Shown piece by piece: positions 22,036-44,842 of a stretch of 64,000 nt of DNA. Both the position numbers and the translations under genes were made by a program. The notes under the pieces were generated by a model that ran no database searches, was not told where the DNA came from, and saw nothing but the letters and a program-made list of their open reading frames with translations. The stretch lies in the NCBI GenBank assembly GCA_963764045.1, contig CAVXQW010000007.1:67595-131594 (forward strand), written 5' to 3'. The stretch's first letter is position 1. Each line of letters opens with the position of its first letter. Origin of the DNA: an uncultured bacterium (lineage in GTDB: Bacteria; Desulfobacterota; Deferrimicrobia; Deferrimicrobiales; Deferrimicrobiaceae).

Positions 22036-23643
22036 ATGGCGGAGGAGTCCGGGAGCGGGAGAGGGTACCTCGCGGAGCGCGGGTGGCGCTCGTGGGCGTA
22101 CACGATGGACCACAAGCGGATCGGCGTGATGTACCTCTACACCACGATCGTCTTCTTCTTCATCGGCGGCATCTTCGCGCTGCTGCTTCGACTGGAGCTG
22201 CTCTCCCCCCAGGCGAAATACTTCAGCGACCACACCTACAACGTCTTCTTCACCCTGCACGGGGCGATGATGATCTTCCTCTTCATCATCCCCGCCATCC
22301 CGTCGGGTCTCGGGAATTTCTTCATCCCGATGCACATCGGCGCGAGGGACGTCGCGTTTCCACGGATCAACCTCGCCAGTTACTGGGTCTTCGTGGCGGG
22401 TTTTCTCGTCGTCATCGGCTCCCTCGTGTCCCCGATGGACACCGGGTGGACCTTCTACACGCCGTACTCGGCGAAAACGGGGGCGGCGGTGGCCACCCTT
22501 TCCTTCGGGATCTTCCTGATCGGGATGTCGTCCATCCTCACCGGACTGAACTTCATCGTCACCATCCACAAGCTGCGCGCCCCCGGGATGACCTGGCACC
22601 GGTTGCCCCTCTTCATCTGGGGGATGTACGCCACCAGCATCATCCAGGTGGTGGCCACGCCGGTGGTCGGGGTGACCTTCCTGCTCCTGGCCATGGAGCG
22701 CCTCTTCGGCGTCGCGTTCTTCGACCCGGCCAAGGGGGGGGACCCGGTCCTGTTCCAGCACTTCTTCTGGTTCTACTCCCACCCGGTGGTGTACGTGATG
22801 ATCCTGCCGGCGATGGGGATCATCTCCGAGGTGATCCCGGTCTTCTCCCGCAAGCCGATCTTCGGGTACAACGCGATCGCCTACTCCTCGCTGGCGATCG
22901 CCTTCCTCGGGTTCCTGGTGTGGGGGCACCACATGTTCACCTCGGGCATGTCCTCCGCTCGCCAACACGATCTTCTCCTTCCTGACCTTCTTCGTCGCCG
23001 TTCCGACGGCGGTGAAGGTGTTCAACTGGATCGCCACGCTCTACAAGGGGTCGATCACCTTCGAGTCGCCGATGCTGTACGCCCTCACCTTCATCTTCCT
23101 GTTCGCCGTCGGGGGCCTCACCGGGCCGTTCCTCGGCGCCCTGGCCACCGACGTGCAACTCCACGACACGTACTTCGTGGTGGCCCACTTCCATTACACG
23201 ATGATGGGCGGCACCGTCATGGGGTTCTTCGCGGGGCTCCACTACTGGTTCCCCAAGATGACCGGAAAGATGCTGAACGAGAAGATCGCGCGGATCGCAT
23301 GGGCGCTGGTCTTCATCGGCTTCAACGTCACCTTCTTCACCATGTTCATCACGGGGTGCGAGGGCATGCCGCGGCGGTACGCGGAATACCTTCCCAGGTT
23401 CCAGGTGGAGAACGTGATCTCGACTCGATCGGTTCCGCGATCCTCGCCGTGGGGATCGCGGTGATGTTCTGGAACTTTCTCCAGGGATTGCGGAAGGGGC
23501 CGCCCGCGCCGGGGAACCCGTGGAGAGCGCTGACCCTGGAGTGGCAGACCCCCTCGCCGCCCATCACCGAGAACTTTCCCGAGATCCCCGTGGTCACCGA
23601 CTGGCCGTACGGGTACGGGAAACCGAAAGGGCCGGTCGCGTGA
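22036..23643 (+). CDS. coxA: cytochrome c oxidase subunit I, two apparent frameshifts
   Basis: ORF 22018..23643 carries both ends. The middle part ([13 protein letters not shown]...HFHYTMMGG...MPRRY) is in ORF 23012..23464. The joins are near 22951..22957 and 23413..23430. Confidence 0.85.
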
Positions 23644-24229
23644 GCGATCCATCCGCCGGGCATACCGACCCCCGCGTCGCGTTCGAGGCCGCCAAGCTCG
23701 GACTGTGGACCTTCCTCGCGACCGAGGTGCTCCTCTTCGGCGCGCTCTTCACCGCGTACACCGTTTTCCGCGTGAAGTACCCGGCGCTCTTCCAGTCGGA
23801 GCACCTGAAGCTCAACCGCGTCCTGGGGACCCTGAACACGGTGGTTCTGATCTCCAGCAGCCTCGCGGTGGCGCTCGGCGTGGACGCGATCCGCAGGGGG
23901 AAGGCGCGCCTTCTGGAGAGGTATTACGGGGTGACGGTTCTCCTGGGGGCGGTCTTTCTCTGCGTGAAGTACATCGAGTGGACCGAGGAGTTCCGCCACG
24001 GGCTGTACCCGGGCACGAACATCTTCTTCTCGCTCTACTTCATGATGACCGGGCTGCACGGCATCCACGTGATCCTCGGCATGGGGGTCCTCACCTACGT
24101 CGTCGTCCTCTCGAGGCGGGGGAGATTCTCCGCGGAGTTACCACACACCGGTGGAGATCGCGGGACTGTACTGGCACTTCGTCGACCTGGTCTGGATCTA
24201 CCTGTTGCCACTGCTTTACCTGATCGGGT
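23640..24229 (+). CDS. coxC: cytochrome c oxidase subunit III, apparent frameshift near the 3-prime end
   Basis: In the frame of ORF 23520..24242, from the GTG at 23640. The tail [30 protein letters not shown], ending at 24229, is in another frame. The join is near 24135. Confidence 0.8.
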
Positions 24230-24238
24230 GAGGGAGAC

Positions 24239-24519
24239 ATGAGCCACGAAACCGACCGGCGCCCGCCGGACCTACTTTACGGTCTACATCGCCCTGGTCG
24301 TGCTGACGGTGGTCACCGTCCTGGTCTCCTACGTCGACCTCGGGATGATGAACGTAGTCGTGGCGCTTCTGATCGCCTCCGTGAAGGCGTCCCTGGTCGC
24401 CCTGATCTTCATGGGACCTCAAGAGCGAAGACCGCCTGGTGTGGGGCTTCGCCCTGGTGCCGATCGCTTTCCTGGCGCTCATCATTCTCGGGACGCTTGT
24501 CGACACGATGTTGCGCTGA
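24239..24519 (+). CDS. small cytochrome c oxidase subunit IV (bacterial type), two apparent frameshifts
   Basis: MSHET (ATG 24239), then YFTVYIALVVLTVVTVLVSYVDLG... (ORF 24300 frame), then LKSEDRLVWGFALVPIAFLALIILG...MLR with a stop at 24517..24519. Confidence 0.6.
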
Positions 24520-24571
24520 TCCGCCGCCGCGAGGATAATCCCCGTATCCGCTTTCCGGAGGAGGGACACCG

Positions 24572-25448
24572 ATGCTGGGCAGAGTGACCGTGGGGCTGCT
24601 GTTCCTTCTCCTGGTTTGGGGAAACCTCGTCGCCGGGCTCAAGGCGGGGCTGGCGTGCCCCGACTGGCCGCTTTGCTACGGGAAGGTCCTGCCCCCGTTC
24701 CGCTGGGACATCTACATGGAGTTCGGCCATCGCGTCATCGCGGCCGTGGCGTCGGTCTTTCTGGTCGCCCTTGCGGTGCTCCGCTACCGGAGATACGACG
24801 GGGCGGTGCGGGCGGTTCCGGTTCTCGCCCTTCTCCTTCTCGCGGCGGAGATCGGGATGGGCGGGGCCGTGGTGCTCCTCGAAACCCCCGTGCAGCTGAC
24901 CACGGTCCACTTCATGACCGGAGTGATGGTGTTTCTCCTCGCGTTCTACATGATGACGTTCGACGGGGAACGTGAACGGGCCACCTTCGCCTTCCGCGGA
25001 CCGGCGGCCCTCTATCTCTCCGTCGTCGCGCTGGTCTATTCGCAATCCGCCCTCGGGGCGTATGTCCGCCACCTCGACGCGGGGTTGGCCTGCCCCGACT
25101 TCCCCACCTGTCTCGGGAAGTGGATCCCCCCGCTCCTCGTCCGGACCCGTGCTGGCGCACTTTACCCACCGTACCCTCGGGTTCCTCGTGCTGCTGACGG
25201 CGGTGACGCTCTACCTTTTTGTCCGCCGGGATCCGCGGCAACGGAGGAATCGGCCCCTCGCCTTGTCGTTCCTCGTCCTCGTTGCGGCACAGATCGGGGT
25301 GGGCGCCCTCGTGGTGTTGTCGGGGCTTTACTTCCTTGCGACGGCGCTGCACCTGGCGGTGGCGCTCGGGTTGCTGTCGATTCTCGGGCATCTATGGGTG
25401 AACGCGGCCCGGGCGGAAGGGACGACGCTATCCCTGCCCCGGAGCTGA
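24572..25448 (+). CDS. ctaA: heme A synthase (COX15/CtaA family), apparent frameshift
   Basis: The N-terminus is in ORF 24572..26305 (CPDWPLCYG, CPDFPTCLG). The C-terminus is in ORF 24972..25448 (HFTHRTLGFLVLL...). The join is near 25135..25141. Confidence 0.75.
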
Positions 25449-26305
25449 CACCTCCGGGGAAACCGTCCGCGATCCTGCTGGTCAAGCCGGGCATCATCGC
25501 GGCGGTGACCCTGGCCGGCTTCTCCGGGATGGTGCTCGCCCGGCGGGGTCTTCCTCCTCCCGGAAAAACGCTGCTCACGCTGGCCTGCATCCTCGCGGCG
25601 GCGGGCGGATCCGCCGCCCTGAACACGGTCCTCGACGCCGGGATCGACGAGAAGATGCCTCGCCTGGCCCGACGGCTCGACGCCCTGCGGTCTCTCGGGC
25701 GCGAGAACGTCGCGGCGGCGTCGGTGACCGCGATCGCCGCATCGCTCCTCCTTTCGGCCCTTTTCCTCAACACCACGACGTGCCTTCTCCTTGCTGCCGC
25801 CGTGGCCGGCTACGCGGTCCTCTATACACTGTTGTGGAAGCGCCGATCGCCGTACGGCACGATTCCCGGCGCCGTTCCCGGCGCCCTGCCGGTCCTCATC
25901 GGGTACGCCGCCGTGAATCCGCACATCGGAATGGACGGCGTTCTCCTGTTCCTGATCCTCGTTCTCTGGCAGCCGCCCCATTTCTGGGCCCTCGCGTTGC
26001 GCCACCAGGCGGAATACCGCGCGGCGGGCGTCCCGGTCCTCCCCGTCGCGTTCGGCGAACCGTACACCAAGGTCCTGATCTTCCTGTACGCGGCGGCGCT
26101 GCTCCCCCTGTCCCTGTCGCTATGGGCGCTGGGATACCTTTCCGCCCGTTTCGGGTGGGCGGCCTTCCTGCTTGGGGCGGGGTTCCTCGCCGTCTTCTAC
26201 CGGGAAACCGTGACGAACCGTCGCTTCGGCCGCGCGTTCGCGGTCTCGATCGTCTACCTGACGCTGCTCCTCCTCGCTCTCCTCGCCGACATCCTGATCC
26301 GGTGA
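25393..26305 (+). CDS. ctaB: protoheme IX farnesyltransferase (heme O synthase)
   Basis: The C-terminal ~300 aa of ORF 24572..26305 are UbiA-like (LVKPGIIAAV, LYTLLWKRRSPYGT, WQPPHFWALA). The start is uncertain: the only in-frame Met is at 25393, which overlaps the ctaA tail. Confidence 0.7.
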
Positions 26306-26407
26306 CCCCACGGGACACCCGTCCGTATCTTCCGGTCCTTCTTTTCCCCTGTCCTGCGTTATCATGGAGGTGCTGTCTCATCTTCTTGGAATCCCCGGGA
26401 GCGGAGC

Positions 26408-27319
26408 ATGAGCCTTCTGGTCGTAGGGTCGATGGCGTTCGACAGCATCAAGTCGCCGTTCGGCGAGGTGGAGCGGGTGATCGGCGGGTCGGCGACCTAC
26501 TTCTCCCTCGCGGCGAGCTACCTGGCACCCGTGCGCCTCGTCTCGGTCGTGGGAAAGGACTTCCCGAAGGGGACGCTCGACATGCTCTCCGCCCGGGGGA
26601 TCGACCTCCAGGGGTTGAAGGTCGCGGAAGGGGTCACCTTCCACTGGAAGGGATATTACGAGTACGACCTGAACATCGCCCATACGGTGAAAACGGATCT
26701 GAACGTGTTCGAGAATTTCGCCCCCGTCCTGCCGGCGTCGTACCGGGAATCCCGCTACGTCTTCCTCGGGAACATCGACCCGAAACTGCAGCTGGACATC
26801 CTGGCCCAGGTGCGCGAACCGAAGATCGTCGCGCTCGACACGATGAACTTCTGGATCGGGAAGAGCCCGCAACTGTTGCGGGAAGTGATCCGGAGCGTCG
26901 ACATCGTCGTCATCAACGAGGCGGAGATCCGGGAGCTGACGGGCGAGTTCAACCTCGTCAAGGCGGCCCGGAAGCTGATGCGCATGGGGCCGGGGCGTGT
27001 CGTGATCAAGCGGGGGGAATACGGCGTCCTCCACCTGTCCGACGGGGAGATCTTCGCGGCCCCGGCGTACCCGCTGGAGACGATCTTCGACCCGACCGGG
27101 GCGGGGGACAGCTTCGCGGGCGGCTTCATGGGATACCTCGCATCGCGGGACGGGGACGCGCTGACGGAGATGGATTACCGGCTGGCCACGATCTACGGCA
27201 GCGCCATCGCCTCCTTCACGGTGGAGGCGTTCAGCACGGAGCGGCTGGAGAGGCTTTCGCGGGAAGAGATCGACACCCGCCTCGCGGCGTTCCGGGCGCT
27301 CACCGAATTCCGGGTCTGA
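26408..27319 (+). CDS. PfkB-family sugar/nucleoside kinase
   Basis: Intact 303-aa ORF with DPTGAGDSFAGGF near the C-terminus. Confidence 0.85.
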   Translation: MSLLVVGSMAFDSIKSPFGEVERVIGGSATYFSLAASYLAPVRLVSVVGKDFPKGTLDMLSARGIDLQGLKVAEGVTFHWKGYYEYDLNIAHTVKTDLNVFENFAPVLPASYRESRYVFLGNIDPKLQLDILAQVREPKIVALDTMNFWIGKSPQLLREVIRSVDIVVINEAEIRELTGEFNLVKAARKLMRMGPGRVVIKRGEYGVLHLSDGEIFAAPAYPLETIFDPTGAGDSFAGGFMGYLASRDGDALTEMDYRLATIYGSAIASFTVEAFSTERLERLSREEIDTRLAAFRALTEFRV

Positions 27320-27347
27320 ACGGCGGAGGAACGGGGGGAGATCGGCC

Positions 27348-29720
27348 ATGGCGACGTTGACCAAAGCCGCCAGAATGGCGTGGCAGATCGGCGCGGCCGA
27401 GGCGGCCCGGCTCCGGTACCCGTTCATCGAGAGGGAGCACCTCCTGATCGGTCTGTGCAGCCTCCGGAAGATCCTGCAATACCTGGACTACACCCACATC
27501 GAGTCGCTCCCGGTCGAAGTCCTTCGGGAGGAGGCGGACGGGATCGAACGGGTTCTCGCGTCCCTCGGGATCACCGATGCGTCGATACGACGCGGTGTAC
27601 GGTCGCGCCTGCGGCCGGGGAACACGATTCATACGGAGCGAACGGTCCACCGCAGCGTGGAGTGCAAGCGGTACTTCCGACGGGCGGGGGAGATCGTCGA
27701 GGATGGGGAGGAGGTCGCCGTGCGCCACCTTTTTTCCGCCGTTCTCGAGGATCCGGGTCCGGTCGTCTCCGCGGTGCTTGCGGGCGCGGGGGTTTCCCCT
27801 GGCGGTCTCCGCGAGAAGTTGCTCGTTGGAAGGGAGCTGGAGCAGGAACCGATCCCCGTTCGCGAAGAGTACGGGAATCTGCCCGTCGCACCGGAGCCGC
27901 TTTCTTCAGAGACGCCGCTCCTGGACCGGTACGGCCGCGACATCACCCGGGCCGCGCGCGAGGGGCGCCTCCTGCCGTTCGTCCACTCCGACCGGGTCCG
28001 CAACACCCTTCGCCAGCTCATCAAGGTCCTCATGATGCCTACCAAGAACAACCCGGTCCTCGTGGGGGAGACGGGGGTAGGGAAGACCGCCGTCGTCGAG
28101 GCGCTCGCGGAACGGATCGCCCTCGGGCGGGACCGCCGGTTCCTCCCTGGACGGAGACTCGTCGAGCTGTCGATGGCGGAGATGGTCGCGGGGACGAAGT
28201 ACCGGGGCGAGTTCGAGGAGCGCCTGACCCGGATGATCGAAGAGGTTCGATCCCACCCGGAGGTGATCCTGTTCATCGACGAATTCCATACGGTGGCAGG
28301 GGCGGGTCGCGCCGAAGGGGCCCCGATGGACGCGGGGAACATCATGAAGCCGGCGCTGGCCCGGGGAGAGTTGCGGTGCATCGGCGCCACGACGATCAAG
28401 GAGTACCGCCACAGCGTCGAGAAGGACCCGGCGCTGGAGCGCCGCTTCCAGCCGGTCCAGGTTGCCGAGCCCGGGCGGGACGAGACCCTGGAGATCCTCC
28501 AGGGGCTTCGGTCTCACCGGGAGAGCCACTTCGGAGTGACGATCACGGACGAAACGCTGTCCGCCACCGTCGAGCTCGCCGTGCGATTCGACCCGACGCA
28601 CTTCCTCCCGGACAAGGCGATCGATCTCCTGGACCGGGCCTGCGCGGAGTGCCGGGTGCCGCTTCTCTCGATGGCGGCGAACTCCGACCGGTACGACGCC
28701 GTGGGGGTCGCCGTTGTGACGCCCGAGTACGTGGCCCGCGTCGTGGCCGAGAAGATGGGGATCCCGATCGAGGTGGCCCGGGGCGGGCTGGGAGGGATCG
28801 CTGAATCGCGGGTGCGAGGGCTGGAGGAGCATCTCAACCGGTACATCGTCGGACAGGAAGAGGCGATCTCCCGGGTTTGCCGTCGCCTCGTCCTTTCCCA
28901 CGCCGGGCTCGGGGACCGTCGCCGGCCGATGGGCGTTTTCCTGTTCCTCGGCCCCTCGGGGGTGGGGAAGACCGAAGTGGCGCGGCGGATCGCCTCGTAT
29001 CTCTTCGCCAACGAACGCGCGTTCATCCATCTGGACATGTCGGAATACCAGGAAGAGGTCAGCGTCTCCCGCCTCATCGGCGCGGCTCCGGGGTACGTCG
29101 GCTACGAAGAGGGGGGGCAGCTCATCGCCCGGCTGCGGACCACTCCGTATTCGGTCGTCCTGCTCGACGAGGTCGAAAAGGCGTCCCCCAGGGTATTCGA
29201 CCTGTTCCTGCAGCTGTTCGACGAGGCGAAGATCACCGACGCGCAGGGCCACACCGCGGACGCCCGCCACACGATCTTCATCATGACGGGAAATATCCCC
29301 CTCCGGAAGGAGATGGGGTTCCGCGCGGGCGAGGCAGCGTTGGCGGAAGGCGCGGCGCTGGCGGAGGTCCGGCGACGGTTCCGTCCGGAGTTCCTCAACC
29401 GCGTGGACGAGCAGATCGTATTCCGGGCGCTCACCCCCGACGACGTCCGGAAGGTGCTGGCGCTCCGGATCGCCGAGTTGTCGGAGAGCCTCCTCGCCGA
29501 CCACGGGGTGGCGCTCGAAGTGGAGGAGGCGGCGGCGGATTGGCTGGCCGCGGAAGGATACCAGGCGGAATACGGGGTACGGGAACTCGCCCGGGCCGTG
29601 GACCGTTGGGTCCGGGCGCCGATCGGAGCGATGAGCGCCGAGGGGGAACTCGCGCGCAGGGCCGCATCGGGCACGCCCCTGGTCGTCCGAAAGACGGCGG
29701 AAGGCATCCGGGTCGAGTAG
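27348..29720 (+). CDS. ClpA/ClpC-like double AAA+ ATPase
   Basis: Intact 790-aa ORF. Clp_N-like repeats are followed by Walker A GETGVGKT and GPSGVGKT. No long ClpB-type middle domain is obvious. Confidence 0.85.
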   Translation: MATLTKAARMAWQIGAAEAARLRYPFIEREHLLIGLCSLRKILQYLDYTHIESLPVEVLREEADGIERVLASLGITDASIRRGVRSRLRPGNTIHTERTVHRSVECKRYFRRAGEIVEDGEEVAVRHLFSAVLEDPGPVVSAVLAGAGVSPGGLREKLLVGRELEQEPIPVREEYGNLPVAPEPLSSETPLLDRYGRDITRAAREGRLLPFVHSDRVRNTLRQLIKVLMMPTKNNPVLVGETGVGKTAVVEALAERIALGRDRRFLPGRRLVELSMAEMVAGTKYRGEFEERLTRMIEEVRSHPEVILFIDEFHTVAGAGRAEGAPMDAGNIMKPALARGELRCIGATTIKEYRHSVEKDPALERRFQPVQVAEPGRDETLEILQGLRSHRESHFGVTITDETLSATVELAVRFDPTHFLPDKAIDLLDRACAECRVPLLSMAANSDRYDAVGVAVVTPEYVARVVAEKMGIPIEVARGGLGGIAESRVRGLEEHLNRYIVGQEEAISRVCRRLVLSHAGLGDRRRPMGVFLFLGPSGVGKTEVARRIASYLFANERAFIHLDMSEYQEEVSVSRLIGAAPGYVGYEEGGQLIARLRTTPYSVVLLDEVEKASPRVFDLFLQLFDEAKITDAQGHTADARHTIFIMTGNIPLRKEMGFRAGEAALAEGAALAEVRRRFRPEFLNRVDEQIVFRALTPDDVRKVLALRIAELSESLLADHGVALEVEEAAADWLAAEGYQAEYGVRELARAVDRWVRAPIGAMSAEGELARRAASGTPLVVRKTAEGIRVE

Positions 29721-29800
29721 CCCCCCTTTCCGGACCCGGGATGTCGTTTCCGGTCCATCGATTATCGTTTCGATCCGTCCCTTTGCTGCTCGTTTTCCCG

Positions 29801-29827
29801 TAAAGTTTTCCCCCTCACTGCCGATAA
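29801..29827 (+). promoter_or_regulatory. sigma-28 (FliA) consensus promoter upstream of the rpfC-like gene
   Basis: TAAAGTTT (29801..29808), 11-nt spacer, GCCGATAA (29820..29827). This is an exact match to the enterobacterial TAAAGTTT-N11-GCCGATAA consensus, 47 nt before the GTG at 29875. Confidence 0.6.
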
Positions 29828-29874
29828 AGATCCCCGACAGCGAAAAACGGGTTGCGTGCGCGCGGGGGCGGGTC

Positions 29875-32452
29875 GTGAACTTCTGGCGGTTGCTGACACA
29901 GGGGCAGTTCCGGCAGGCTTGGGGGACTCTCTCCCGTCGGCCGGACTCGGAGCACGAACAGGCGTTGATCCGCGCGGTCATCACCGCTCTCCTTTTCATT
30001 TACCTGTCCTGGTCGATGTCGAGAGACGGATATCTGGATCCCGGGGAAGTCCTTCTCCTCTGGATTTGCGCACTGTACCATCTCTTCTCCGTCGGACTTT
30101 TCGTGCGGATCACGTTCGCTCCCATCGCGACGTCTCGCTTCCGACGGTACCTGGGGATGGTGGGGGACCTGGTCCTGACGTCCTACGGGATCAGCGTGGC
30201 AGGCGACGTCGCCGGCCCCCTGTACGTCGTCCTCCTCTGGGTGATCTTCGGGAACGGTTTCCGGTACGGCAGGGAATACCTGTTCGCTGCGTCGGCTATC
30301 GGCACGATCTCTTTCGGGTTCGCGATCTATTTCAACGTGTACTGGTTGAACCACACCGTCCTGGCGGTCGGCCTGCAGGTCGGCCTCGTCTTGTTGCCGC
30401 TGTACGTGTCCTCCCTCCTGAAGAAGCTCACGGTCGCCGGGAAGCGCGCCGAGGAGGCCAACCGGGCGAAGAACCGGTTCCTCGCGAACATGAGCCACGA
30501 GATGCGGACCCCGCTCAACGGGATCATCGGGATGCTGGACCTGCTGAAGGGGACGCCGCTATCGACGGAACAGGAGGAACTGACGAAGACGATCGACGAC
30601 TCGGCGCACACCCTCCTGTTCCTGATGCAGGATGTCCTCGACCTCTCGAAGATCGAGGCCGGGAAAGTCTCCGTCGAGGTGTCGGACTTCGACCTGTACG
30701 CGGTTGTGAAGCACACGGTCGCCATCGTCGAGCCCCAGGCGCGGTTCAAGGGGCTCGCCACGTTCCTGCGCGTTCCCTCGAGTGTGCCGTTTCTCCTGCG
30801 CGGGGATCCGCTTCTGCTCCGGCAGGTGCTGTTGAACCTCCTCGGGAACGCCTTGAAGTTCACCGAAAAGGGCGAGGTGGGGGTTCGCGTCGCTCTCGAG
30901 TCGGAGACACATAGGCACGCGACGGTGCGTTTCGAGGTGGTGGATACCGGCATCGGCATCTCCGCCGAGGCGCAGCGGCGGATCTTCGACCGGTTCACCC
31001 AGGCGGACGAGTCGATCACGCGTAGGTTCGGAGGGACAGGGTTAGGGACGACGATTTCGAAGGAGATCGTCGAGATGATGGGCGGGACGATCGGAGTGCA
31101 CAGCGAACCTGGCAAGGGGAGTACCTTCTGGTTCACCGTCGAACTGGTGAAGCAGAGCCGGCAGGAGGATGAGGCTGCGCCCGCGGCGGCGCTCGTGGAC
31201 CGGCGCGCTCTCGTTCTCTCGTCGGAACCCGAAGTGGCCGAGTCCCTCCGGGAGCACCTTTCGGGGTGGGGCATCCACGTCACAACGGTGGACCGGTCCG
31301 CCCAGGCGTTCGCCCGGATCGTCGGTTCTTCCAACGCGGGAACCCCCTTCGACTTCGTTCTCGCCGTCAGCGAGGGATTGGACATGGACGCGGCCGGGTT
31401 CGCCCGCGCCGTCCGGTCCGATTCCACGATCCACGAGAGCCGGCTCATCCTCGTCACCCGCGGGGAAGACGGCGGGGACCCTGCCGTGCTCGACGGCTAC
31501 AGCGCGGCCCTTCCGGTGCCGGTGGACAAAAGGATGCTCTTCAACGCTTTGCATTTTTCGCGCGCCGGGACTCCGGCGGACGATCCCTCGGTGGACAGCC
31601 TCGCCGAGAAGTACCGTCGGAAGAACGTGGGCGGACGGAAGTTGCGCGTCCTGGTGGCGGAAGACAACCGGACGAACCAGATGGTGATCGGGAAGATCCT
31701 CGAGCGGGCAGGGCACGACTTCAAGATCGTGGCGAACGGGGAAGAATTCCTCGATGCCCTGAAGGAGCAGACGTTCGACATCGCGCTCCTCGACCTCCAC
31801 ATGCCGGTGATGGGAGGCATCGAGGCGGCGAAGCTGTCCCGGTTCCTGTCGCCGGGCTCTCCGCGGATGCCGATCGTGGCGCTCACGGCGGACGCGACGC
31901 CGGAGGCGCGGGCGGAGTGCGAGGAGGCGGGGATGGACGCGTGCCTCACCAAGCCCATCGACACGCGGAAACTGTTCGACCTATTCGAAACGATGGTTCC
32001 CGGCGGCGGCGCCGTGCGGACGAGCCCCGGGGAGGGTGCTCCTGGGCGCGGAGGAGACGGCGGCAGCGATGGCCGAGGACCCGGAGGAACCTCCATGTCT
32101 CGACCCTCGGTATCTCCGCGAGCTGTCGGACCTCGGCGGAAACAGCGATTTCGTGGTTCGCCTCGCGTGGACCTTTCTCAAGGGATCGAAGGAGAAGGTC
32201 CGGGGGCTCGAGCGGGCCGTGGCGGATCGCGACCTGGAAAAGGTCCGCGAGTTGGCGCATGCGTTGAAGGGGAACTCGGGGCAGATCGGCGCGCTCGCGT
32301 TGATGCAGGCATGCGAGCGGTTTTCCGGTATCGCCGCAGGGGAGCTGGAACGAAACGGGGAATCCTACCTCGAAGAGGTGAAGGAAGAACTCTCCCGTGC
32401 CAGGACGGCGCTGGACGAGTACCTGGGAACCCGGAATTCCGCGGTTTCCTGA
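29875..32452 (+). CDS. rpfC: RpfC-like hybrid sensor histidine kinase (multi-pass sensor, HisKA, HATPase, degenerate REC-like, REC, Hpt); apparent frameshift before the Hpt domain
   Basis: ORF 29875..32487 carries the H-box MSHEMRTPLNG, GGTGLGTTI and the REC DIALLDLHMPVMGG. The Hpt domain (HALKGNSG) is in ORF 32036..32452, joined somewhere in 31990..32050. The N-terminal strings RPDSEHEQALIR and GPLYVVLLWVIFGNGFRYG resemble Xanthomonas RpfC (from memory). Confidence 0.75.
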
Positions 32453-32456
32453 CCGA

Positions 32457-33376
32457 TCAGGCGTTCCCCGTCCGCGGCGTTGAGTGATCGATGATGGGGT
32501 GAACGACGAGGCCCGTGCTTGGGCGTTCACGAGCCGCTCCATCAGCCGGATTTCCCGCGGACCAAGGCGCATAGCGGTGTCCACCCAGATTTCCTTTACT
32601 TCCATGAGCTCTTCGTAGACGAGCGGCCGGAGCTTCCGGCGGACCTGCATAATCGCCTGCTGGGCGTTTTGCCGGCCTGCCTGCCGGACGATATGCTCGT
32701 ACACCGCATTCTCCCCGCGTCCCTCCTCGGCCAGTATATCGACGACCCCTTCGGCGTGAAGTTCCTCGGCCCGATGAAGCTTCCCGTTCAGGAGCATCCG
32801 TTCCGTCCGCTGCATGCCGATCCGCCGCTGGAGCAGGTTGTACGCCCCCATCCCGGGGAAGAGGTTGAACATGACCTCGGGGAACCCGAACTGGGATTGT
32901 TTCTCCGAGACGAGGATGTCGCTCGCAAGGGCCGCCTCGAATCCACCGCCGAGGGCGTCCCCTTGGACGAGGGAGATGGTGGTGATGGGGAGGTGGAAGC
33001 CTACCGCATGCGCATAGAGCACGTCGATGCAATCCTTCGCGTACCGGCGAAGCGTTTCCGGGTCGTTTTCCTTCAGGCAGCGAATGAAAAGAGCGAGGTC
33101 GCCTCCGAAGTTGAACACCCCGGGAGTCGCGGACGCAAGGATGACGTACCGGACCCCCCACTCCTTCCCCTCGTCCTCCGCCGATCGCTCGATCTTCCCC
33201 TGGAAGCGGCGCAATTCGTCCAGCACCTCGAAATTGAAGCAGGGTCGTGGGTGCGGTGCGAGGTAGCACCAGAGGGCGCCGTACTGCGGCTCGAATCGCG
33301 TGCGGAGATGCCGATAAGAAGTCGGATGGGGAAGGAGAGGTGAAGGCGTTACCTTCATAACGTCCCGTAACTCCAT
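32457..33376 (-). CDS. rpfF: RpfF-like DSF synthase (crotonase superfamily); 3-prime end uncertain
   Basis: Within ORF 31946..33658, starting at MELRDVMKV (33376). VFNFGGDLALF, GGGFEAALA, FPEVMFNLFPGMGAY, EIWVDTAM and MERLVNAQ are present. The in-frame ORF runs on antisense to the Hpt domain. An alternative frame stops at 32457, which I take as the likely true end. Confidence 0.75.
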
Positions 33377-33416
33377 TGTCCCCGCCGGTAATTTTATTTG
33401 GACTGCAGCGTAACGG

Positions 33417-33444
33417 ATAATAGCACGCGATTCCTGTAAAGCAA
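33417..33444 (-). promoter_or_regulatory. candidate sigma-70 promoter for the rpfF-like gene
   Basis: On the minus strand: TTGCTT (33444..33439), 16-nt spacer, TATTAT (33422..33417). Lies ~40 nt upstream of the ATG, in an AT-rich island. Confidence 0.35.
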
Positions 33445-33469
33445 ATAAAACAAATTCTTTTTTCCAATA

Positions 33470-33489
33470 AATGGAAATGTTTTTCCATT
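33470..33489. promoter_or_regulatory. perfect 8-bp-arm palindrome AATGGAAA-tgtt-TTTCCATT in the divergent control region
   Basis: Read directly from the sequence. A third related half-site, TTTCCAAT, lies at 33461..33468. Sits between the rpfF-like and thioesterase genes. Confidence 0.5.
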
Positions 33490-33596
33490 CCCTTGGCTTT
33501 CCCTCTTCGCCCCATTGTAACGGCGTGGCGGAAAGGCTATCTTTCCACGATGCGAAATCGCCGCCGTCCGCGCGATAAACCGCCGAAGGAGGCCTC

Positions 33597-34016
33597 ATGA
33601 AAGAGACACTGAAGGTCGGGCTGGAACATGTGCACACGTATCGCATTCCGGAAAACAAGACGGTTCCACACCTTTATCCCGAGGCGAAAGCGTTCCAGGA
33701 GATGCCGAAAGTGTTCGCCACCGGCTACATGGTCGGGCTCATGGAGTGGGCGTGCATCGAGGCGATGGCGCCGCACATGGAGGCGGGGGAGGGGAGCGTC
33801 GGGACGCTCGTCAACGTGACGCACACCGCGGCGACCCCGCCCGGGATGACCGTTACGGTCCGCGTCCGGTGCATCGGGGTTGAGGGGCGGCGGTCGGTGT
33901 GGGAGGTCGAGGCGAAGGACGATGTCGAACTCATCGGCAAGGGGACCCACGAGCGATTCGCCGTCGACTTCGCGAAATTCAACGCCCGCGTGGCGAAGAA
34001 GGCCGCGGGGGCGTAG
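33597..34016 (+). CDS. hotdog-fold thioesterase family protein
   Basis: 139-aa ORF with a GGAGG 5 nt upstream. VFATGYMVGLMEWACIEA and GTLVNVTHTAATPPG resemble the FlK/thioesterase superfamily (from memory). Confidence 0.7.
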   Translation: MKETLKVGLEHVHTYRIPENKTVPHLYPEAKAFQEMPKVFATGYMVGLMEWACIEAMAPHMEAGEGSVGTLVNVTHTAATPPGMTVTVRVRCIGVEGRRSVWEVEAKDDVELIGKGTHERFAVDFAKFNARVAKKAAGA

Positions 34017-34051
34017 TGCGTCAATAAATCCGGAAACGTAGACGTAGGGCG

Positions 34052-34208
34052 CCCCGGCAGGGTCCGGCGGAGTCGCCGCAGGGGGGGGCGCCCCACTCCC
34101 GTACGAAAAGCGCTCCCTGGGGTACCCCCACTGTAGGAAGAACGGGGGGCACAGCCGTGCAGGTTCTCGCACGGCGAGCCACGAACGGAGCCCCGCCCTC
34201 CGAGGCGG
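34052..34208 (+). repeat. composite repeat copy C: Y-module interrupted by a ~60-nt segment containing the X-module
   Basis: 34052..34080 and 34141..34208 align with the ends of copies A and B. The middle (including 34075..34118, GGGGCGCCCC...GGGGTACCCC) matches 45743..45786 instead. Confidence 0.75.
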
Positions 34209-34247
34209 CGCAGCCGAACGGCGTGTCCCGTAGGCGCCTTCTTCCTT

Positions 34248-34310
34248 ACTTACCGATCGGTAAATTTTCTGTTGACATGGTTTGGCCTGTGCGTATACTT
34301 ACCGGTAAGT
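34248..34310 (+). promoter_or_regulatory. sigma-70 promoter flanked or overlapped by two related palindromic operators, upstream of the TetR gene
   Basis: TTGACA (34272..34277), 16 nt, TATACT (34294..34299). Palindromes ACTTACCGATCGGTAAAT (34248..34265) and ACTTACCGGTAAGT (34297..34310); the latter overlaps the -10 element. Confidence 0.6.
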
Positions 34311-34344
34311 AAATACCGGACCGCATGCGGCGGGAGGCAACGGG

Positions 34345-34986
34345 ATGACGAAAAGGGATCGGAAAGTGGCCGAGGCGGGCGGTGAGGTCCGGGAGCGCCT
34401 CCTGACCGGGGCGACCGAACTGTTCGCCGCGAAAGGGTACGCCGCCACGACCGTCCGCGAGATCGTCGAACGGGCGGGCGTGACCAAGCCGGTCCTCTAT
34501 TACTACTTCCGCAGCAAGGAGGGGATCTACCTCGACCTGATGCGGGAGCCTTTCGGCAAGTTCGCCGCGCTCGTCGAGGAGACGCTCGTTCCGGCCGGCT
34601 CGTCCAGGGATCGGCTGTTCCGGTTATGCCTCGCCGCGTACGACATCTTCGTCGAGAACATCGACGCCGCGCGGGTGATGTACTCCATCTACTACGGGCC
34701 TCCGCAGGGAGCGCCGTTCGTCGATTTCGACGCGTACCACCACCGCTTCCAGGAGGCGGTGCTCCAGGTCCTCCGGGAAGGGATCCGGGACGGAGAGTTC
34801 CGGCGGGTGAACCCGGCCGACGCGATGTGGGCCGTCATCGGGGCGCTCAACGTCGCGATGGAGGTGGAGTTGTGCCACCCGCAGCAGAGCCTCGGGCGGG
34901 ACGGCGTACGGCGCGTCCTTGAACTCGTTCTCGAAGGGATCGTCATGAACAGGAAGACCACCGGAAAGATCAGGAGGAAGACATGA
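34345..34986 (+). CDS. TetR/AcrR-family transcriptional regulator
   Basis: 213-aa ORF with the N-terminal HTH TVREIVERAGVTKPVLYYYFRSKE. Its stop overlaps the next ATG. Confidence 0.9.
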   Translation: MTKRDRKVAEAGGEVRERLLTGATELFAAKGYAATTVREIVERAGVTKPVLYYYFRSKEGIYLDLMREPFGKFAALVEETLVPAGSSRDRLFRLCLAAYDIFVENIDAARVMYSIYYGPPQGAPFVDFDAYHHRFQEAVLQVLREGIRDGEFRRVNPADAMWAVIGALNVAMEVELCHPQQSLGRDGVRRVLELVLEGIVMNRKTTGKIRRKT

Positions 34987-36137
34987 TCCGGAGATTCACC
35001 CTCGGGGCCGCCGTTCTCGCCGCGTTTCTCGCCGCGGCCGGATGCTCTTCGAGGGAGGGAGTCGGGAAAGCGGAAATTCCACCGGCGGGAAAACCCGCCG
35101 TTTCCGTCGACGCGGCGAACGCCGCGACGGGGGATGTCACCGAGGGGATCGAAGTCACCGGATCCCTGTCGCCGAAGTATCAGGCGGAGATGAAGTCGGA
35201 GTACGGCGGCATGGTGGCGCAGGTGTACGTGAACGACTGGGCGAAGGTGCGAAAGGGCGATCCGCTCCTCAAGGTGGACACGAGGGAGGGGGAGGTCCTC
35301 CTCCTGAAGGCGAAGGCGGCGCTCCAGATGGCGAAGGCCGGGCAGCAGGAGGCCGAGGCGGCCGTCGCCAGGGCCGACCGGGAATACGACCGGGCGATCC
35401 AGCTGCAGGAGTCCGGGCTGATCACGAGGCAGGGAATGGACGACGCCCGGACGCAGAAAGAGGCGGCGGCCGCGCGGCTCGCGGCGACCAGGGCCCAGGT
35501 GGCGGCCGCGGGGGAGGACGTCTCCCAAGTGACGACGCGTCTTTCCAAGGCGGTGATCCGTTCCCCCTTCGACGGGACGGTGGCGGAGCGACTGGTGAGC
35601 GCGGGGGACCTCGTGGGCGAGATGCAGAAGGTGGTTTTCCGCATCGTGGACAACCGGCTCCTCGAACTCACCGTGAGCGTGCCTTCCACGGAGATGGCCG
35701 CATTGCGCGTGGGGCAGCCTGTGCGGTTCTCCTCCGACGCGTTCCCCGGCAGGGAGTTCGAAGGGAAGATCGCCCATATCAACCCGTCGGTGAACCCCGG
35801 CGACCGCTCCGTTCGCGTGATCGCTCTGGTGCCCAACGTACCGGAGGTCCTCAAGGGGGGACTGTTCGTGAAGGGGAGGATCGCGACCGGCGTCCGGAAG
35901 GGGGTCGTCCTGGTCCCCCGGACGGCCCTTCTGTCCTGGAACGTGGCCGCCCGGAAAGGGGAGGTCTTCGTCGTCGACAACAACGTCGCGCGTCGCCGGG
36001 GGGTGGCGACGGGTTCGGTCCAGGGGGACCGCGTCGAGATCCCCTCGGGCCTCCGCTCCGGAGAGACGGTGGTCACCCGCGGCGCGTTCCTCCTTTCGGA
36101 AGGCGACGCGGTGAAGGTCGTCGCGATGGGGAAATAG
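34983..36137 (+). CDS. RND efflux periplasmic adaptor (MFP)
   Basis: 384-aa ORF with lipobox AAAGCS, followed by a coiled-coil hairpin and beta-barrel segments. Confidence 0.85.
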   Translation: MIRRFTLGAAVLAAFLAAAGCSSREGVGKAEIPPAGKPAVSVDAANAATGDVTEGIEVTGSLSPKYQAEMKSEYGGMVAQVYVNDWAKVRKGDPLLKVDTREGEVLLLKAKAALQMAKAGQQEAEAAVARADREYDRAIQLQESGLITRQGMDDARTQKEAAAARLAATRAQVAAAGEDVSQVTTRLSKAVIRSPFDGTVAERLVSAGDLVGEMQKVVFRIVDNRLLELTVSVPSTEMAALRVGQPVRFSSDAFPGREFEGKIAHINPSVNPGDRSVRVIALVPNVPEVLKGGLFVKGRIATGVRKGVVLVPRTALLSWNVAARKGEVFVVDNNVARRRGVATGSVQGDRVEIPSGLRSGETVVTRGAFLLSEGDAVKVVAMGK

Positions 36138-36140
36138 GCG

Positions 36141-39100
36141 ATGTTTCTCTCCGACCTCTCCATCAAGCGCCCCATCTTCGCCGCGGTCATGATGCTGGCC
36201 CTGGTGACGCTGGGCGCCTTCTCCTACAGGCGGCTCGCGGTCGACATGTTCCCCGACGTGGAGATCCCGGTGGTCACGATCGTCACGAAGTTCCCCGGGG
36301 CTTCTCCCGAGAGCGTCGAGCGGGAGGTGAGCAAGCGGATCGAGGAGGCGGTCAACCCGATCGCCGGCGTGAAGAAAGTCATCTCGATCTCCCGCGAGAG
36401 CGTTTCCACGGTCATGGTCGAGTTCCAGCTCGAGGTGAAGCTGAACGACGGCGCCCAGGAGGCGCGGGCCAAGATCGCGGCCATCCGCGGCGAACTGCCG
36501 GAAGGGATCGAGGAACCGATCATCCAGAAGCTGGACTTCGCGGCGGCGCCGATCGTCTCCCTTGCCGTCCGGTCCGACACCCTTCCGTCGAAGGACCTCA
36601 CCACCCTCGTGGAGAAAAAGGTCAAGCGGCGCTTCGAGAACATCCCCGGCGTCGGGAAGGTCGACCTCGTGGGGTCGTCGAAACGGGAGGTCAACGTCGA
36701 CATCGACCAGGCGCGCCTCGAGGCGCTCGGCATGGGCGTGGACGAGGTGATCGCCGGGATCCGGTCCGAAAACGTCAACACCCCTCTCGGGCGGCTGACG
36801 AAGAACGGCTCCGAATTCCCGTTGCGCGTTTCCGGGAAGCCCGCGGAGGTGTCCCGGTTCCCGTCGATGGTGATCGGTCAGAGGAACGGGCGGGCCGTGC
36901 TGCTGGGCGAGGTGGCCGACGTGGTCGACGGGATCGAGGAGCCGCGGTCCCTCGCGCTGGTGAACGGCGTGCCCGCCGATCGCGCTCGACATCCAGAAGC
37001 AGTCGGGGGCGAACACGGTCTCCGTGGTCGAGCTGGTGAAGAAGGAGATCGCCCGGCTGCAGCCGGAGCTGCCCCCGGGACGAGGATCGAGATCGTCCGG
37101 GACGCATCGACCATGATCCGGGACTCCGTGGAGGACGTCCAGACGACCCTGATCCTCGGCGGGATCCTGACCATCTTCATCGTCTTCTGCTTCCTCAACT
37201 CCTGGCGCTCCACGGTGATCACCGGACTCACCCTCCCGATCTCGGTCATCTCCTCCTTCATCGTCATGAACTTCATGGGCATGACGCTCAACGTGATGAC
37301 GCTGATGGCGCTGTCCCTCGCCATCGGCCTCCTCATCGACGACGCGATCGTCGTCCGGGAGAACATCGTCCGGCACCTCGAACACGGGCAGGACCATTTC
37401 GAGGCGGCCCGGGCAGGGACCGCCGAGATCGGGCTCGCGGTGATCGCCACCACCTTCTCCATCGTCGCCGTCTTCGTGCCGGTGGCGTTCATGAAGGGGA
37501 TCGTCGGGCGCTTCTTCTTCCAGTTCGGGATCACCGTGGCCTTCGCGGTGCTGGTCTCCCTCTTCGTGTCGTTCACCCTCGACCCGATGCTCTCCTCCCG
37601 GTGGATCGACCCCGACATCGAGCGAAAGGGGAAACGGCATCTCGTCGCCCGGGTCCTCGACCGGTTCAACGGCTGGTTCGACCGGACGGCCGACCGGTAT
37701 CGGTCCGTGATCGCGTGGGCCCTCGGGCATCGCAAGACGATGCTCGCCATCGCGGCGCTGGCGTTCGTCGGCGGCATCGTGGCGTTCGCCTCGCTGAAGA
37801 CGGAGTTCTTCACGGCGGTGGACCGGGCCGAGTTCCAGATCAACTTCAAGTCCGCCCCGGACGCCTCCCTGGTCGAGACGCGGGACCGCCTGGATGCAAT
37901 CCTCGCGGAGCTCCGCAAGATCCCCGAGGTCCGCAGCACCTTCGCGACCATCGGCGCCGGGGACGCGGGGACGGTCCGGGACGGCATGGTGTACGTGAAG
38001 CTCTCCGAAAAGAGGGAGCGGAAACGGGGCCAGGACGAGATACAGAAAGAGGTGCGGGAGCGGCTGGGGACGATCCCCGCGATTGTCCCCGCGATCGTCG
38101 AGGTGGGAAGGGTCACCGGGGAGAAGCCGTTTACCGTGGCCGTGCGAGGGGAGGACATCGGCCTCCTCAAGGGGTACGCGGCGGCGCTGAAACAGGAGAT
38201 CCGGAAGATCCCGGGGATCGTCGACCTCGAGGTGACCCTGGAGCACGACATCCCGGAGTATCGCCTGACCGTGGACGGGGAGCGGGCGGCGGACCTGGGC
38301 GTGACGACCGGGACCGTCGTACGCACGGTGGGCGCGCTGATCGGGGGGCAGGTCGTCTCGACCTACGAGGACCCGGACGGCGACGCGGTGAACGTTCGGG
38401 TCCGGCTCCCTGTCGCGATGCGCCGGGACCCGTCCCAGGTGGAGCGGGTCCGGATGGCGGTGAACCGGGGGCCGGAAGGGGTCGCCCTCGTGCCGCTGGG
38501 CGAAGTGGCCCGGTATTCGCTGAGCGACACTCCCTCCGAGATCAACCGGCAGGCGCTGACCCGGGAGGTCGTCCTCTCGGCGAACCTCGACGGGTTGCCG
38601 CTGGGGGAGGCGATGAACAAGGTCAAGGAGATCGCCGGCAGGATGCCGATGGCTCCAGGGTACCGCGTGGTCTTCACCGGGGAAGGCGAGGACATGATCG
38701 AATCGTTCGGCTACATGGCCGAGGCGCTGCTCCTCGCCGTGATCTTCGTCTACCTGATTCTCGCGGCGCAGTTCGAATCGTTCATCGAGCCGTTCTCGAT
38801 CATGCTTTCGCTTCCCCTGTCGATCGTCGGGATGGCGGGGATGCTGCTGCTGACGGGGGACACGGTGAACATCATGTCCCTCATCGGGCTCATCATGCTG
38901 ATGGGGCTGGTGACGAAGAACGCGATCCTGCTCGTGGATTACGCGAAGGTGCTGCAGGCGCGGGGGATGGAGCGGACCGAGGCGGTGATCACGGCGGGCA
39001 GGACGAGGCTGCGGCCCATCCTCATGACGACGCTGGCGATGATCTTCGGGATGCTCCCCCTGGCGCTGGGGATCGGGGCGGGGGCGGAGGAGCGGGCGCC

Positions 39101-39200
39101 GATGGCGCGGGCCGTCGTCGGGGGGCTGATCACGTCGACCTTCCTCACGCTGCTCGTCGTGCCGGTGGTCTACACGCTTCTGGACGACTTCGCCGCCTGG
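36141..39200 (+). CDS. RND (AcrB/HAE1-type) inner-membrane efflux pump; compensated double frameshift; no stop before the next gene
   Basis: ORF 36141..39554. The residues between ~36975 and ~37080 read properly only in another frame (IALDIQKQSGANTVSVVELVKKEIARLQPELPPG). The 3-prime end is set arbitrarily before the Met at 39201. Confidence 0.8.
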
Positions 39201-40643
39201 ATGCGGCGGAGATGGGTCGGGAAGAAGGCCGCGGCCGTCGCGGTCGTCGGCCTGCTGGTCCTGCTTCACGGGATCCTGTCCCTCGTGCCTCCGGCCGTTT
39301 TCGCCGGCGATTCCTCCCCGGTGGAGATCCTGACGCTCGACGACGTGGTCCGGATCACTCTCGAGAACAACCGGGACATCCGCAAGGCCCTGGAGCTTCG
39401 CAATACCCTGGAAGGGAAGTACGTCGAGGAGCGGGCGGCGGCCCTGCCGCAGTTCGTCGGCACCGCCACGCGGATCGCGAAGCTGGGACACCACCCAGGA
39501 AGCGTTTCGGCATCCCCCCGGGGAACACCACGGTGGCCGCCCAGCTCGGGGTGACCCAGCCCCTGTACACGGGGGGGCAGGTGACCGCGGCGATCCGGGC
39601 GGCACGGGTCGGCCTGGCCACCGCGGACGACCGGCGGAAGATCTCCCGGCAGGCGGCGCTGAAGGAGGTCCACCACGACCTTCCATGACATCCTGCTGGC
39701 CCGCGAGCTGAACGCCATCGCGTTGGAGAACCGGGACCAGAAGGCGCGGTTCCTCGACGAGGCGCAAAAGAAAATACACCGCCGGTACGGCGACGGAGTA
39801 CGACGTCCTGGTGGCGAAGGTGGGCCTGGAGAACGCGAAGCCCGCGATCGTGCGCACGGAGAACCAGCTTCTTTCCCTCCGCGAGCGGCTCCGGTTCCTG
39901 CTGGGGCGGGACGGTCGGCCGGTCGACGTGCGCGGAGACCTCGCGACGGAAATCGCCCCCTACCCGGAATACGGGAAGGCCCTCGCGAGCGCCGTGGAAA
40001 ACCGCCCCGAGTTGTCCGACATCCGCAACCGGATCGGGATCACGAAAGAGCTGGTGACGATCGCGCAGGCGGGGACCATGCCGCGGCTGGAGGTCCAGGC
40101 GGACATCGGCTGGAGGGACAGCAGATCTCGGGGGATTCGACGCCAGCGGCAAGGTCTGGTCCGCGGGGCTGTTCGCCTCGTGGCCGCTGTTCGACGGACT
40201 GCGCACCCGGGGCCGGGTCGCCCAGGCAAGGAGCGACCAGAATACGCTGCGCATCGAGGAGGCCCAGCTCCTCGACAGCATCGCCCTGCAGGTCCGCGAC
40301 GCGACGAACGCCGTCCGGGATGCGGGGGAGGTCGTTCGGGCGATCACCGACACCGTCGGACAGGCGGAGCGGCTCCTGGCTCTCGCGGAGAAAGGGTACG
40401 AGTACGGGGTGAAGACAAAGCTGGAGGTGGACGACGCCAATTTCAACCTGTAACCAGGCACGGGTCAACCTCGCGCAGGCGCGGCGCGATTACCTGGTCG
40501 CCAACCTGAACCTCCGGTATGCGATGGGAACCCTGGGGGAGGAATGGACCGCGTCGTACGACACGGTCAAGTCGTTTACCCCCGCGACGTCCCCGATCGG
40601 GGTGGTGCGCGAAGTTCTGGAGGGGAAGCCGGCTCTGCCGTAG
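39201..40643 (+). pseudogene. TolC-like outer-membrane efflux factor, at least 6 frame disruptions as assembled
   Basis: The signal peptide MRRRWVGKKAAAVAVVGLL is in frame with the RND ORF. The remainder is pieced from ORFs 37601..39688 and 39811..40509 and from unlisted frames (QPLYTGGQV, ENAKPAIVRTENQLL, RDYLVANLNLRYAMG). The stop is at 40641..40643. Confidence 0.7.
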
Positions 40644-41838: not shown

Positions 41839-41894
41839 GGCGTTTGCCCTCGTCTATTGGGGTCCGATAACGAATCGCGTCGCCCAAATAGGAG

Positions 41895-41910
41895 AGCAAA
41901 CGGCGTGCCA
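41895..41910 (-). promoter_or_regulatory. sigma-54 promoter upstream of fliA
   Basis: The minus strand reads TGGCAC-GCCGT-TTGCT, an exact fit to TGGCAC-N5-TTGCW. It lies ~57 nt upstream of the fliA ATG, with an AT-rich tract (41915..41960) further upstream. Confidence 0.7.
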
Positions 41911-42003
41911 TCCGGTTAAAACAGTATAAATAATTGATATGTATATGGTATTTATTTCGAGGAAAGGAAGGATACGCGGGCGGGGCGTCAATACTCCCCG
42001 CAA

Positions 42004-42023
42004 ACCGTCAATATTTTGACGGT
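42004..42023 (-). terminator. stem-loop at the stop codon of the hybrid kinase gene, followed by a second GC hairpin
   Basis: ACCGTCAA-tatt-TTGACGGT palindrome. The second hairpin, CGGGG-N10-CCCCG, lies at 41981..42000. There is no clean U-tract. Confidence 0.3.
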
Positions 42024-44736: not shown

Positions 44737-44743
44737 CGGGTCC

Positions 44744-44796: not shown

Positions 44797-44842
44797 GAAA
44801 CCTGTGCGGCCATCGTGCCGCCGGTGGCGGAACGGAGGGGCA

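Follow-up and report, generated by a model that had tools for sequence, protein, structure and literature searches.

In Xanthomonas campestris pv. campestris (Xcc), signalling by a diffusible signal factor (DSF) depends on the rpf cluster, in which rpfB and rpfF are convergent to rpfG, rpfH and rpfC (PMC4504480; PMC4517397). The synthase RpfF is a crotonase with the catalytic residues Glu141 and Glu161, and the sensor RpfC is a hybrid kinase in which an N-terminal sensor segment (R-A-D-S-E-H-A-Q) and five transmembrane (TM) helices precede a relay of HisKA, HATPase, receiver (REC) and histidine phosphotransfer (Hpt) domains. Mutagenesis of RpfC has found R15, D17, S18, E19 and Q22 to be essential for DSF perception and L172 and A178 to be autoinhibitory (PMC5391125). 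Clusters of the form rpfF-rpfG-rpfC have also been described in Methylophaga, Leptospirillum, Thiobacillus and Methylobacillus (PMC4504480). In Burkholderia and Cronobacter the receptor is RpfR, a cytoplasmic PAS-GGDEF-EAL protein. Outside xanthomonads and Burkholderia, DSF signalling has hardly been dissected. In metagenome surveys, rpfF, rpfC and rpfG are already common annotations (PMC12781772), so the mere presence of such a pair in a new genome is unsurprising. The paper on the genomes of the candidate phylum MBNT15 does not mention quorum sensing (PMC9386147). The subject of this analysis is a pair of convergent genes in a 64-kb stretch of DNA (the window) from a member of the Deferrimicrobiaceae, an uncultured, iron-reducing bacterium of MBNT15. 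One gene encodes a crotonase-fold protein (minus strand, from an ATG at 33376) and the other a membrane hybrid kinase (plus strand, from a GTG at 29875). We put the probability at about 80% that they form a real RpfF/RpfC-type quorum-sensing module of the DSF family, a judgement that draws on sequence comparison.

The lengths of 305 aa for RpfF and 858 aa for the kinase refer to the frame-repaired genes, from which insertions present in the window were removed as described below. The crotonase contains the Pfam ECH_1 domain and is approximately 41% identical to Xcc RpfF. When it was searched against the PDB, the four best matches were all synthases of DSF or of the Burkholderia signal BDSF (164-193 bits): Xcc RpfF (3m6m, 192.6 bits, E 8e-56), 7zq7 (188.7 bits), Cronobacter RpfF (6dgn, 167.3 bits) and Burkholderia Bcam0581 (5fus, 163.8 bits). 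The next crotonase reached just 57.4 bits and DspI 46.6 bits. This gap between 164-193 bits for the synthases and at most 57 bits for other crotonases places the protein in the RpfF family. With the broad NCBIfam model PRK08788 (NF006452, cut-off 177 bits) the window protein scores 350 bits, Xcc RpfF 427 bits and Cronobacter RpfF 392 bits; the Burkholderia and Cronobacter synthases are members of the same broad family. Both catalytic glutamates named in the original prediction are present; they correspond to Glu141 and Glu161 of Xcc RpfF and are invariant across 77 aligned sequences of the family. The pocket residues G85, G86, L136, G137, G138, M170, W258 and L276 of Xcc RpfF are also kept, the counterparts of G85, L136, G137, G138, M170, W258 and L276 being G91, L142, G143, G144, M176, W264 and L282 (roles of catalytic and pocket residues from PMC9864630). 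With its pocket residues kept and by this score gap, the protein lies nearer to characterized DSF and BDSF synthases than to ordinary enoyl-CoA hydratases. Many of its close homologs are labelled 'DSF synthase' by JGI.

As the Xcc reference for the kinase we utilized the RpfC encoded on a metagenome contig (L003) whose RpfF is 100% identical to the RpfF of PDB 3m6m. BLASTP aligned the window kinase to this protein with 45% identity over 428 aa (aa 19-442, E 3e-112); the alignment begins at residue 19 and runs through the sensor segment, the TM domain and the kinase core with two small gaps, so that the N-terminus does align with RpfC. The five residues required for DSF perception in Xcc are conserved at equal spacing, and this N-terminal motif is kept in RpfC-type kinases across phyla. 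RpfH aligns with the membrane input domain as well (38% identity, E 2e-25). Beyond the core, identity to Xcc RpfC is 39% in the REC and 28% in the Hpt, which aligns to residues 603-709, and the three relay residues of the window kinase align with Xcc H198, D512 and H657. The best PDB match of the REC is that of Xcc RpfC (3m6m_D, E 8.6e-28), which was crystallised with RpfF. The predicted architecture was recovered in full, HisKA, HATPase, REC and Hpt by Pfam and five membrane segments by hydropathy, a crude method for counting helices. All the peptide strings quoted in the original prediction were located in translations of the window, and the three RpfC strings that it gave for comparison agree with the authentic X. 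campestris protein. Sensors of this type form a large family, comprising 1929 clusters at 50% identity (E <= 1e-3), mostly with members of approximately 850 aa. Some homologs are 1000-1257 aa long (P0167, P0172, P0174, P0181 and others) and carry two to three sensor modules in tandem, which recalls the RpfC-1 of Stenotrophomonas maltophilia with its ten TM helices.

One element of the window kinase that Xcc RpfC does not have is a pseudo-receiver between the catalytic ATPase (CA) domain and the REC. Pfam Response_reg did not match this segment, in which the phospho-acceptor Asp is replaced, but hhalign related it to the true REC with a probability of 96.9% (E 1.7e-10), compared with 0.3% for a control against the CA domain. 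The extra receiver-like segment noted earlier is thus real, although it is not the peculiarity that it was taken for: it was matched in 48 of the 80 loci described below, is present in the 51 homologs of 820-880 aa and is absent only from the shorter RpfC of xanthomonads.

Our searches for partner genes covered the window and the homologous loci that we retrieved. The synteny sample consisted of 80 genome loci, 62 of which have an RpfC-type sensor match; 17 of the other 18 have too little downstream DNA to judge. In 60 of the 62, drawn from many phyla, rpfF and rpfC are adjacent and convergent, as they are on the Xcc contig. The convergent orientation was originally listed as a departure from the classical cluster, but it is the classical Xanthomonas arrangement. 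What does set the locus apart is the gene upstream of rpfC. In 31 proteobacterial loci this is rpfG, and in none of the loci with the genomic backbone of the window, where a ClpB-like AAA+ gene takes its place and where no HD-GYP match was found in any locus. The non-xanthomonad rpf loci in our sample (Gallionellaceae, Thermithiobacillus, Thiohalobacter, Acidithiobacillus and Zetaproteobacteria) share with the window the convergent pair, the kinase of approximately 850 aa with its pseudo-receiver and the DSEHEQ motif, and differ from it in having the HD-GYP rpfG directly upstream of rpfC. The nearest relatives of the window locus are metagenome-assembled genomes (MAGs) of Candidatus Deferrimicrobiaceae or Deferrimicrobium. 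The AAA+ gene of the window (27348-29720, plus strand) lies directly upstream of the kinase in the same direction and encodes a ClpA/ClpB-like double-AAA+ protein of 790 aa that scores far under the NCBIfam cut-offs for both ClpB and ClpA; it is kept at this position in all the Deferrimicrobiaceae loci.

Tests of sequence, motif and synteny thus give strong backing to the central claim of an RpfF/RpfC-type synthase and sensor pair in a non-xanthomonad. A metabolic explanation would make the crotonase an enoyl-CoA/ACP (acyl carrier protein) hydratase or a thioesterase, and the kinase a BarA/GacS-like sensor of fatty acids or membrane stress that merely lies next to it. The best NCBIfam matches of the kinase core are indeed BarA, TorS and LetS, but each is far under its cut-off. 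No curated NCBIfam or Pfam model spans the sensor region, and RpfF enzymes release non-signal fatty acids too (PMC4517397). Such an explanation would leave unaccounted for the very large score gap to ordinary crotonases, the alignment of the sensor with RpfC over its full length with the five DSF-perception residues kept, the adjacency of synthase and sensor across phyla and the significant co-variation of the two variable modules that is reported below, and we regard it as highly improbable.

If the pair is the DSF-family module that we favor, its operation can be proposed by analogy with characterized DSF systems. The RpfF-like crotonase would dehydrate 3-hydroxyacyl-ACP from fatty-acid synthesis to cis-2-enoyl-ACP and would itself hydrolyse the thioester, releasing a diffusible cis-2-unsaturated fatty acid; RpfF is known to have its own thioesterase activity (PMC9864630). 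The convergently encoded kinase would sense this acid through its N-terminal R-x-D-S-E-x-x-Q segment and five-helix membrane domain, upon which the juxtamembrane autoinhibition would be lifted and the kinase would autophosphorylate at H208. The phosphate would then pass from H208 to D640, to the Hpt His and finally to a response regulator that is presumably encoded elsewhere, there being no rpfG beside the pair.

Contrary to what had been assumed, the window as written does not contain either gene as one uninterrupted frame. The rpfF frame from its ATG overruns 32457 and stops only at 31946, and kinase residues 1-715 lie in one frame (29875-32019) with the Hpt in another. Comparison with the homologous loci L001 and L002 traces the first shift to a 2-nt insertion at approximately 32480-32481, eight codons before the rpfF stop, which also appears against L084. 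DNA alignment with close relatives attributes the second to a single inserted nucleotide near 32040, within the Gly-rich linker between REC and Hpt. With these bases removed, the genes encode a 305-aa RpfF ending in PPRTGNA and an 858-aa kinase, lengths equal to those of the intact homologs in L002 and L084, where the Hpt is fused in frame to the kinase. Such insertions are not confined to the pair. Relative to L084, a 90% identical locus from the MAG CAVRXE01, there are approximately 17 coding insertions of 1-2 nt across 18 kb of the window (22434-40624), for example at 22957, 23365, 23422, 24133, 25146, 36976 and 39468-40450. Because the same kind of damage also affects the reading frames of other genes (those of the cytochrome oxidase subunits, ctaA and the RND pump), we take the two shifts in rpfF and rpfC to be, most likely, sequence errors. 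One could argue instead that the shifts are real mutations in the decaying, dead remnant of a signalling locus, since the sequence as written leaves both of them out of frame and no rpfG is adjacent. We consider this very unlikely. Similar insertions occur in the surroundings of the locus, and of its own two shifts one falls within the final eight codons of rpfF and the other in a kinase linker of low conservation; no other damage was seen, and the relatives L084, L002 and L163 are intact, with catalytic and relay residues kept.

The two proteins of the module do not evolve uniformly among close relatives. We compared 12 syntenic loci at the protein level and nine at the nucleotide level. In the ClpB-like gene, the cytoplasmic kinase, the Hpt and the neighboring FlK-type thioesterase gene, the syntenic Deferrimicrobiaceae loci share approximately 90% identity with the window, and nucleotide identity between types drops at two places only: in rpfF, to 56-71%, and in the membrane sensor (approximately 29962-30440), to 63-79%, against a background of 89-94%. 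At the protein level, the RpfF proteins share a median of 62% identity (range 42-90) and the TM sensors one of 57% (range 46-87), compared with 86% for the cytoplasmic kinase (range 79-94). The borders of the variable segments are sharp and coincide with domain boundaries, and the DSEHEQ motif and the LWVIFGNGFRYG loop remain conserved across types. The comparison of L086 with the window over 29780-30010 illustrates this: the two are 100% identical in the approximately 90 bp that precede the kinase start and 93% identical in the first 90 bp of the kinase, and by approximately 30007 identity has fallen to 39%, so that the breakpoint, which lies where the membrane domain begins, is very sharp. 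In these close relatives, synthase and membrane sensor have been exchanged or have diversified at a much higher rate than the remainder of the locus. Altogether, the Deferrimicrobiaceae loci comprise at least four types of RpfF and approximately five of the sensor. Two FlK-rpfF-rpfC alleles (L083 and L085), whose RpfF proteins are 82% and 63% identical to that of the window, were binned in one MAG (JBBIVQ01), which suggests that types co-exist in one community or population.

The variation in synthase and sensor is correlated. A Mantel test of RpfF against sensor gave r = 0.46 (p = 0.003) for the proteins of the 12 loci, the partial Mantel test gave r = 0.43 (p = 0.002), and at the nucleotide level r rose to 0.86 (p = 2.5e-4). 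Synthase and sensor groups largely coincide for the window with L084 and L001, for L086 with L087 and L088, and for L121 with L138. A strict one-to-one correspondence of types was considered and abandoned after more loci had been included, given that the combinations in L002, L083 and L091 are discordant and that L163 falls between types.

The closest precedent for this pattern is the rpf-1/rpf-2 variants of S. maltophilia, where no genes of the cluster vary more than rpfF and rpfC, synthase variants go with variants of the RpfC input domain and recombination breakpoints lie inside the rpf genes (PMC4517397). The Deferrimicrobiaceae loci differ from it in their greater number of types, in a much deeper divergence (down to 42% amino acid identity in RpfF), in having 2 kb of conserved kinase between the two modules, and in that the variation is found among sister species of an uncultured phylum. 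Because of this intervening 2 kb, one simple replacement event does not explain both variable modules. Staphylococcus agr and Bacillus comQXP likewise combine hypervariable signal-production genes and a co-varying sensor domain inside a conserved locus, although their proteins are unrelated and their signals are peptides, and here the co-variation is partial and the specificity groups are only putative.

We infer that the variation in rpfF and the sensor may reflect diversification of signal identity and reception. Tentatively, and at somewhat less than even odds, we propose that the DSF module of the Deferrimicrobiaceae is a multi-allelic specificity system, in which RpfF and the sensor would be two separate cassettes, their types being either swapped or maintained. 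Variable modules would also arise under relaxed constraint or with a fast clock, with no selection for signal specificities; catalytic cores in general evolve more slowly than membrane input domains, the loci L163 and L165 are intermediates and the combinations of types are at times discordant. However, at a background of approximately 90% identity, pairs of loci are either background-like (93% nucleotide identity between rpfF of the window and of L084) or very different (56-71%), RpfF identities being bimodal among 10 loci. The breakpoints at domain borders are sharp, and the active-site and sensor-motif residues are invariant, all of which makes relaxed constraint rather unlikely in our view, if still a serious candidate. 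Neighbor-joining trees were saturated and do not separate diversification in situ from import from other lineages. Were the multi-allelic proposal correct, the cis-2 fatty acids produced and perceived would differ between types, or types would eavesdrop on one another, and the output would depend on some regulator that is not an adjacent RpfG. The natural chimeras would then show where chain specificity is determined in RpfF, and ligand specificity in RpfC.

Several results weigh against the reading of the locus as a DSF-family module. The window protein scores 220 bits with the RpfF equivalog model NF053515, below its cut-off of 550, which Xcc RpfF passes with 601 bits; the experimentally validated Cronobacter RpfF fails as well (184 bits), however, so the model is specific to the xanthomonad lineage. 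A tblastn search of the 64-kb window found no RpfG HD-GYP domain and no RpfB, RpfG matching only through its receiver domain, which upholds the absences reported earlier; compared with the Xcc cluster, the pair lacks adjacent rpfG, rpfH and rpfB. With both genes frameshifted as written, decay in this particular strain is possible. The co-variation of synthase and sensor is partial, as the discordant loci demonstrate. Lastly, the product of the synthase, the ligand of the sensor and the output are all assigned by homology to known systems. Taking these points together with the evidence in favor, the pair adds to a known family, and does so in an uncultured phylum and without an adjacent rpfG, placing in MBNT15 the full synthase and sensor pair of a mode of signalling otherwise studied in few groups. 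The hypervariable synthase and sensor modules raise its interest moderately beyond the presence of the pair: relatives with a common cytoplasmic kinase core and very different synthases and sensors are a ready panel for asking which parts of RpfF set the acyl chain and which parts of RpfC set ligand specificity. The features of the locus are collected in Table 1.

Table 1. Positions in the window of the synthase gene, the sensor kinase gene with its domains and motifs, and the adjacent thioesterase gene
Feature	Positions	Strand	Basis
rpfF-like DSF-family synthase, crotonase fold	32457..33376	-	ECH_1, PRK08788 and PDB matches; 305 aa after repair
Catalytic E147 (32936-32938) and E167 (32876-32878), matching Glu141 and Glu161 of Xcc RpfF	32876..32938	-	Alignment; codons checked
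rpfC-like hybrid sensor histidine kinase, 858 aa after repair	29875..32452	+	BLASTP against Xcc RpfC; intact 858-aa ortholog in L002
Sensor motif R22-P-D24-S25-E26-H-E-Q29	29938..29961	+	Alignment to Xcc RpfC R15, D17, S18, E19, Q22
Membrane input domain of five helices, with the LWVIFGNGFRYG loop motif	29962..30440	+	Five hydropathy peaks; hypervariable module
Juxtamembrane L182 and A188, counterparts of L172 and A178 in Xcc RpfC (autoinhibition)	30418..30438	+	Alignment
HisKA (aa 198-263; phospho-His H208 at 30496-30498) and HATPase_c (aa 310-424)	30466..31146	+	Pfam; H208 equivalent to Xcc H198
Pseudo-receiver (aa 436-582), without phospho-acceptor Asp and conserved Lys	31180..31620	+	hhalign
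Receiver (aa 592-702), phospho-Asp D640 at 31792-31794	31648..31980	+	Pfam; D640 equivalent to Xcc D512
Hpt, in another frame in the window; phospho-His of AHALKGN at 32258-32260	32084..32452	+	Pfam Hpt, E 9.7e-11
FlK-type hotdog thioesterase, divergent from rpfF	33597..34016	+	Pfam FlK

The last gene in the table had been described as divergently paired with rpfF. Its divergent position is correct, but a functional pairing does not follow from our comparisons. The thioesterase gene adjoins rpfF only in Deferrimicrobiaceae loci (12 of the 80), and in L002 it stays with the TetR and RND genes although 7 kb separates it from rpfF. Among loci with a close backbone its sequence is 91-98% identical across rpfF types and shows no co-variation with rpfF. 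On these grounds of synteny and missing co-variation it was rejected as a member of the DSF module, and it is probably a neighbor rather than a part of the signalling machinery. The insert of approximately 7 kb in L002 (2921-9787) encodes two radical-SAM proteins, one of them B12-binding, a metallo-beta-lactamase-fold protein and a second, divergent RpfC-like hybrid kinase with a degenerate N-terminal motif (SPELDQGIIR).

The receptor in the window is an RpfC-type membrane hybrid kinase, which distinguishes this locus from the RpfR systems of Burkholderia and Cronobacter. A six-frame scan of the window returned scattered matches to EAL-type patterns and no GGDEF motif in an open frame, so there is no indication of RpfR in the window. 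Control of the pair by sigma-54 was also considered and was rejected for want of a site upstream of either gene. The sigma-54 pattern has five matches in the window, under the approximately 11 expected by chance, and the nearest is a match with two mismatches inside the Hpt coding region. The sole perfect consensus, TGGCACGCCGTTTGCT (41895-41910, minus strand), lies 10 kb away, just upstream of a gene for a FliA-like sigma factor. Genes nearby (41065-45087, minus strand) encode a kinase and a receiver, which are frameshifted too, and a REC-sigma-54 activator.

A search of the window with Rfam matched no known RNA family. A palindromic intergenic repeat that resembles repetitive extragenic palindromes (REP) or miniature inverted-repeat transposable elements (MITE) occurs at 6843-6979 and 18131-18267, with a partial copy at 34168-34241; as RNA it would form a long hairpin (z = -4.9; no Rfam match). 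The partial copy lies beside the locus in the spacer between the FlK-type gene and the TetR gene, and L084 has a copy in the same spacer. The TetR gene has a strong sigma-70-like promoter (34272-34299), and downstream of it is an RND transporter gene whose product is fused to an outer-membrane-factor (OEP) domain. This unusual fusion forms one protein of approximately 1497 aa in intact relatives and is located at 36141-40637 (plus strand) in the window, at 2789-7288 in L001 and at 1-3307 in L166.

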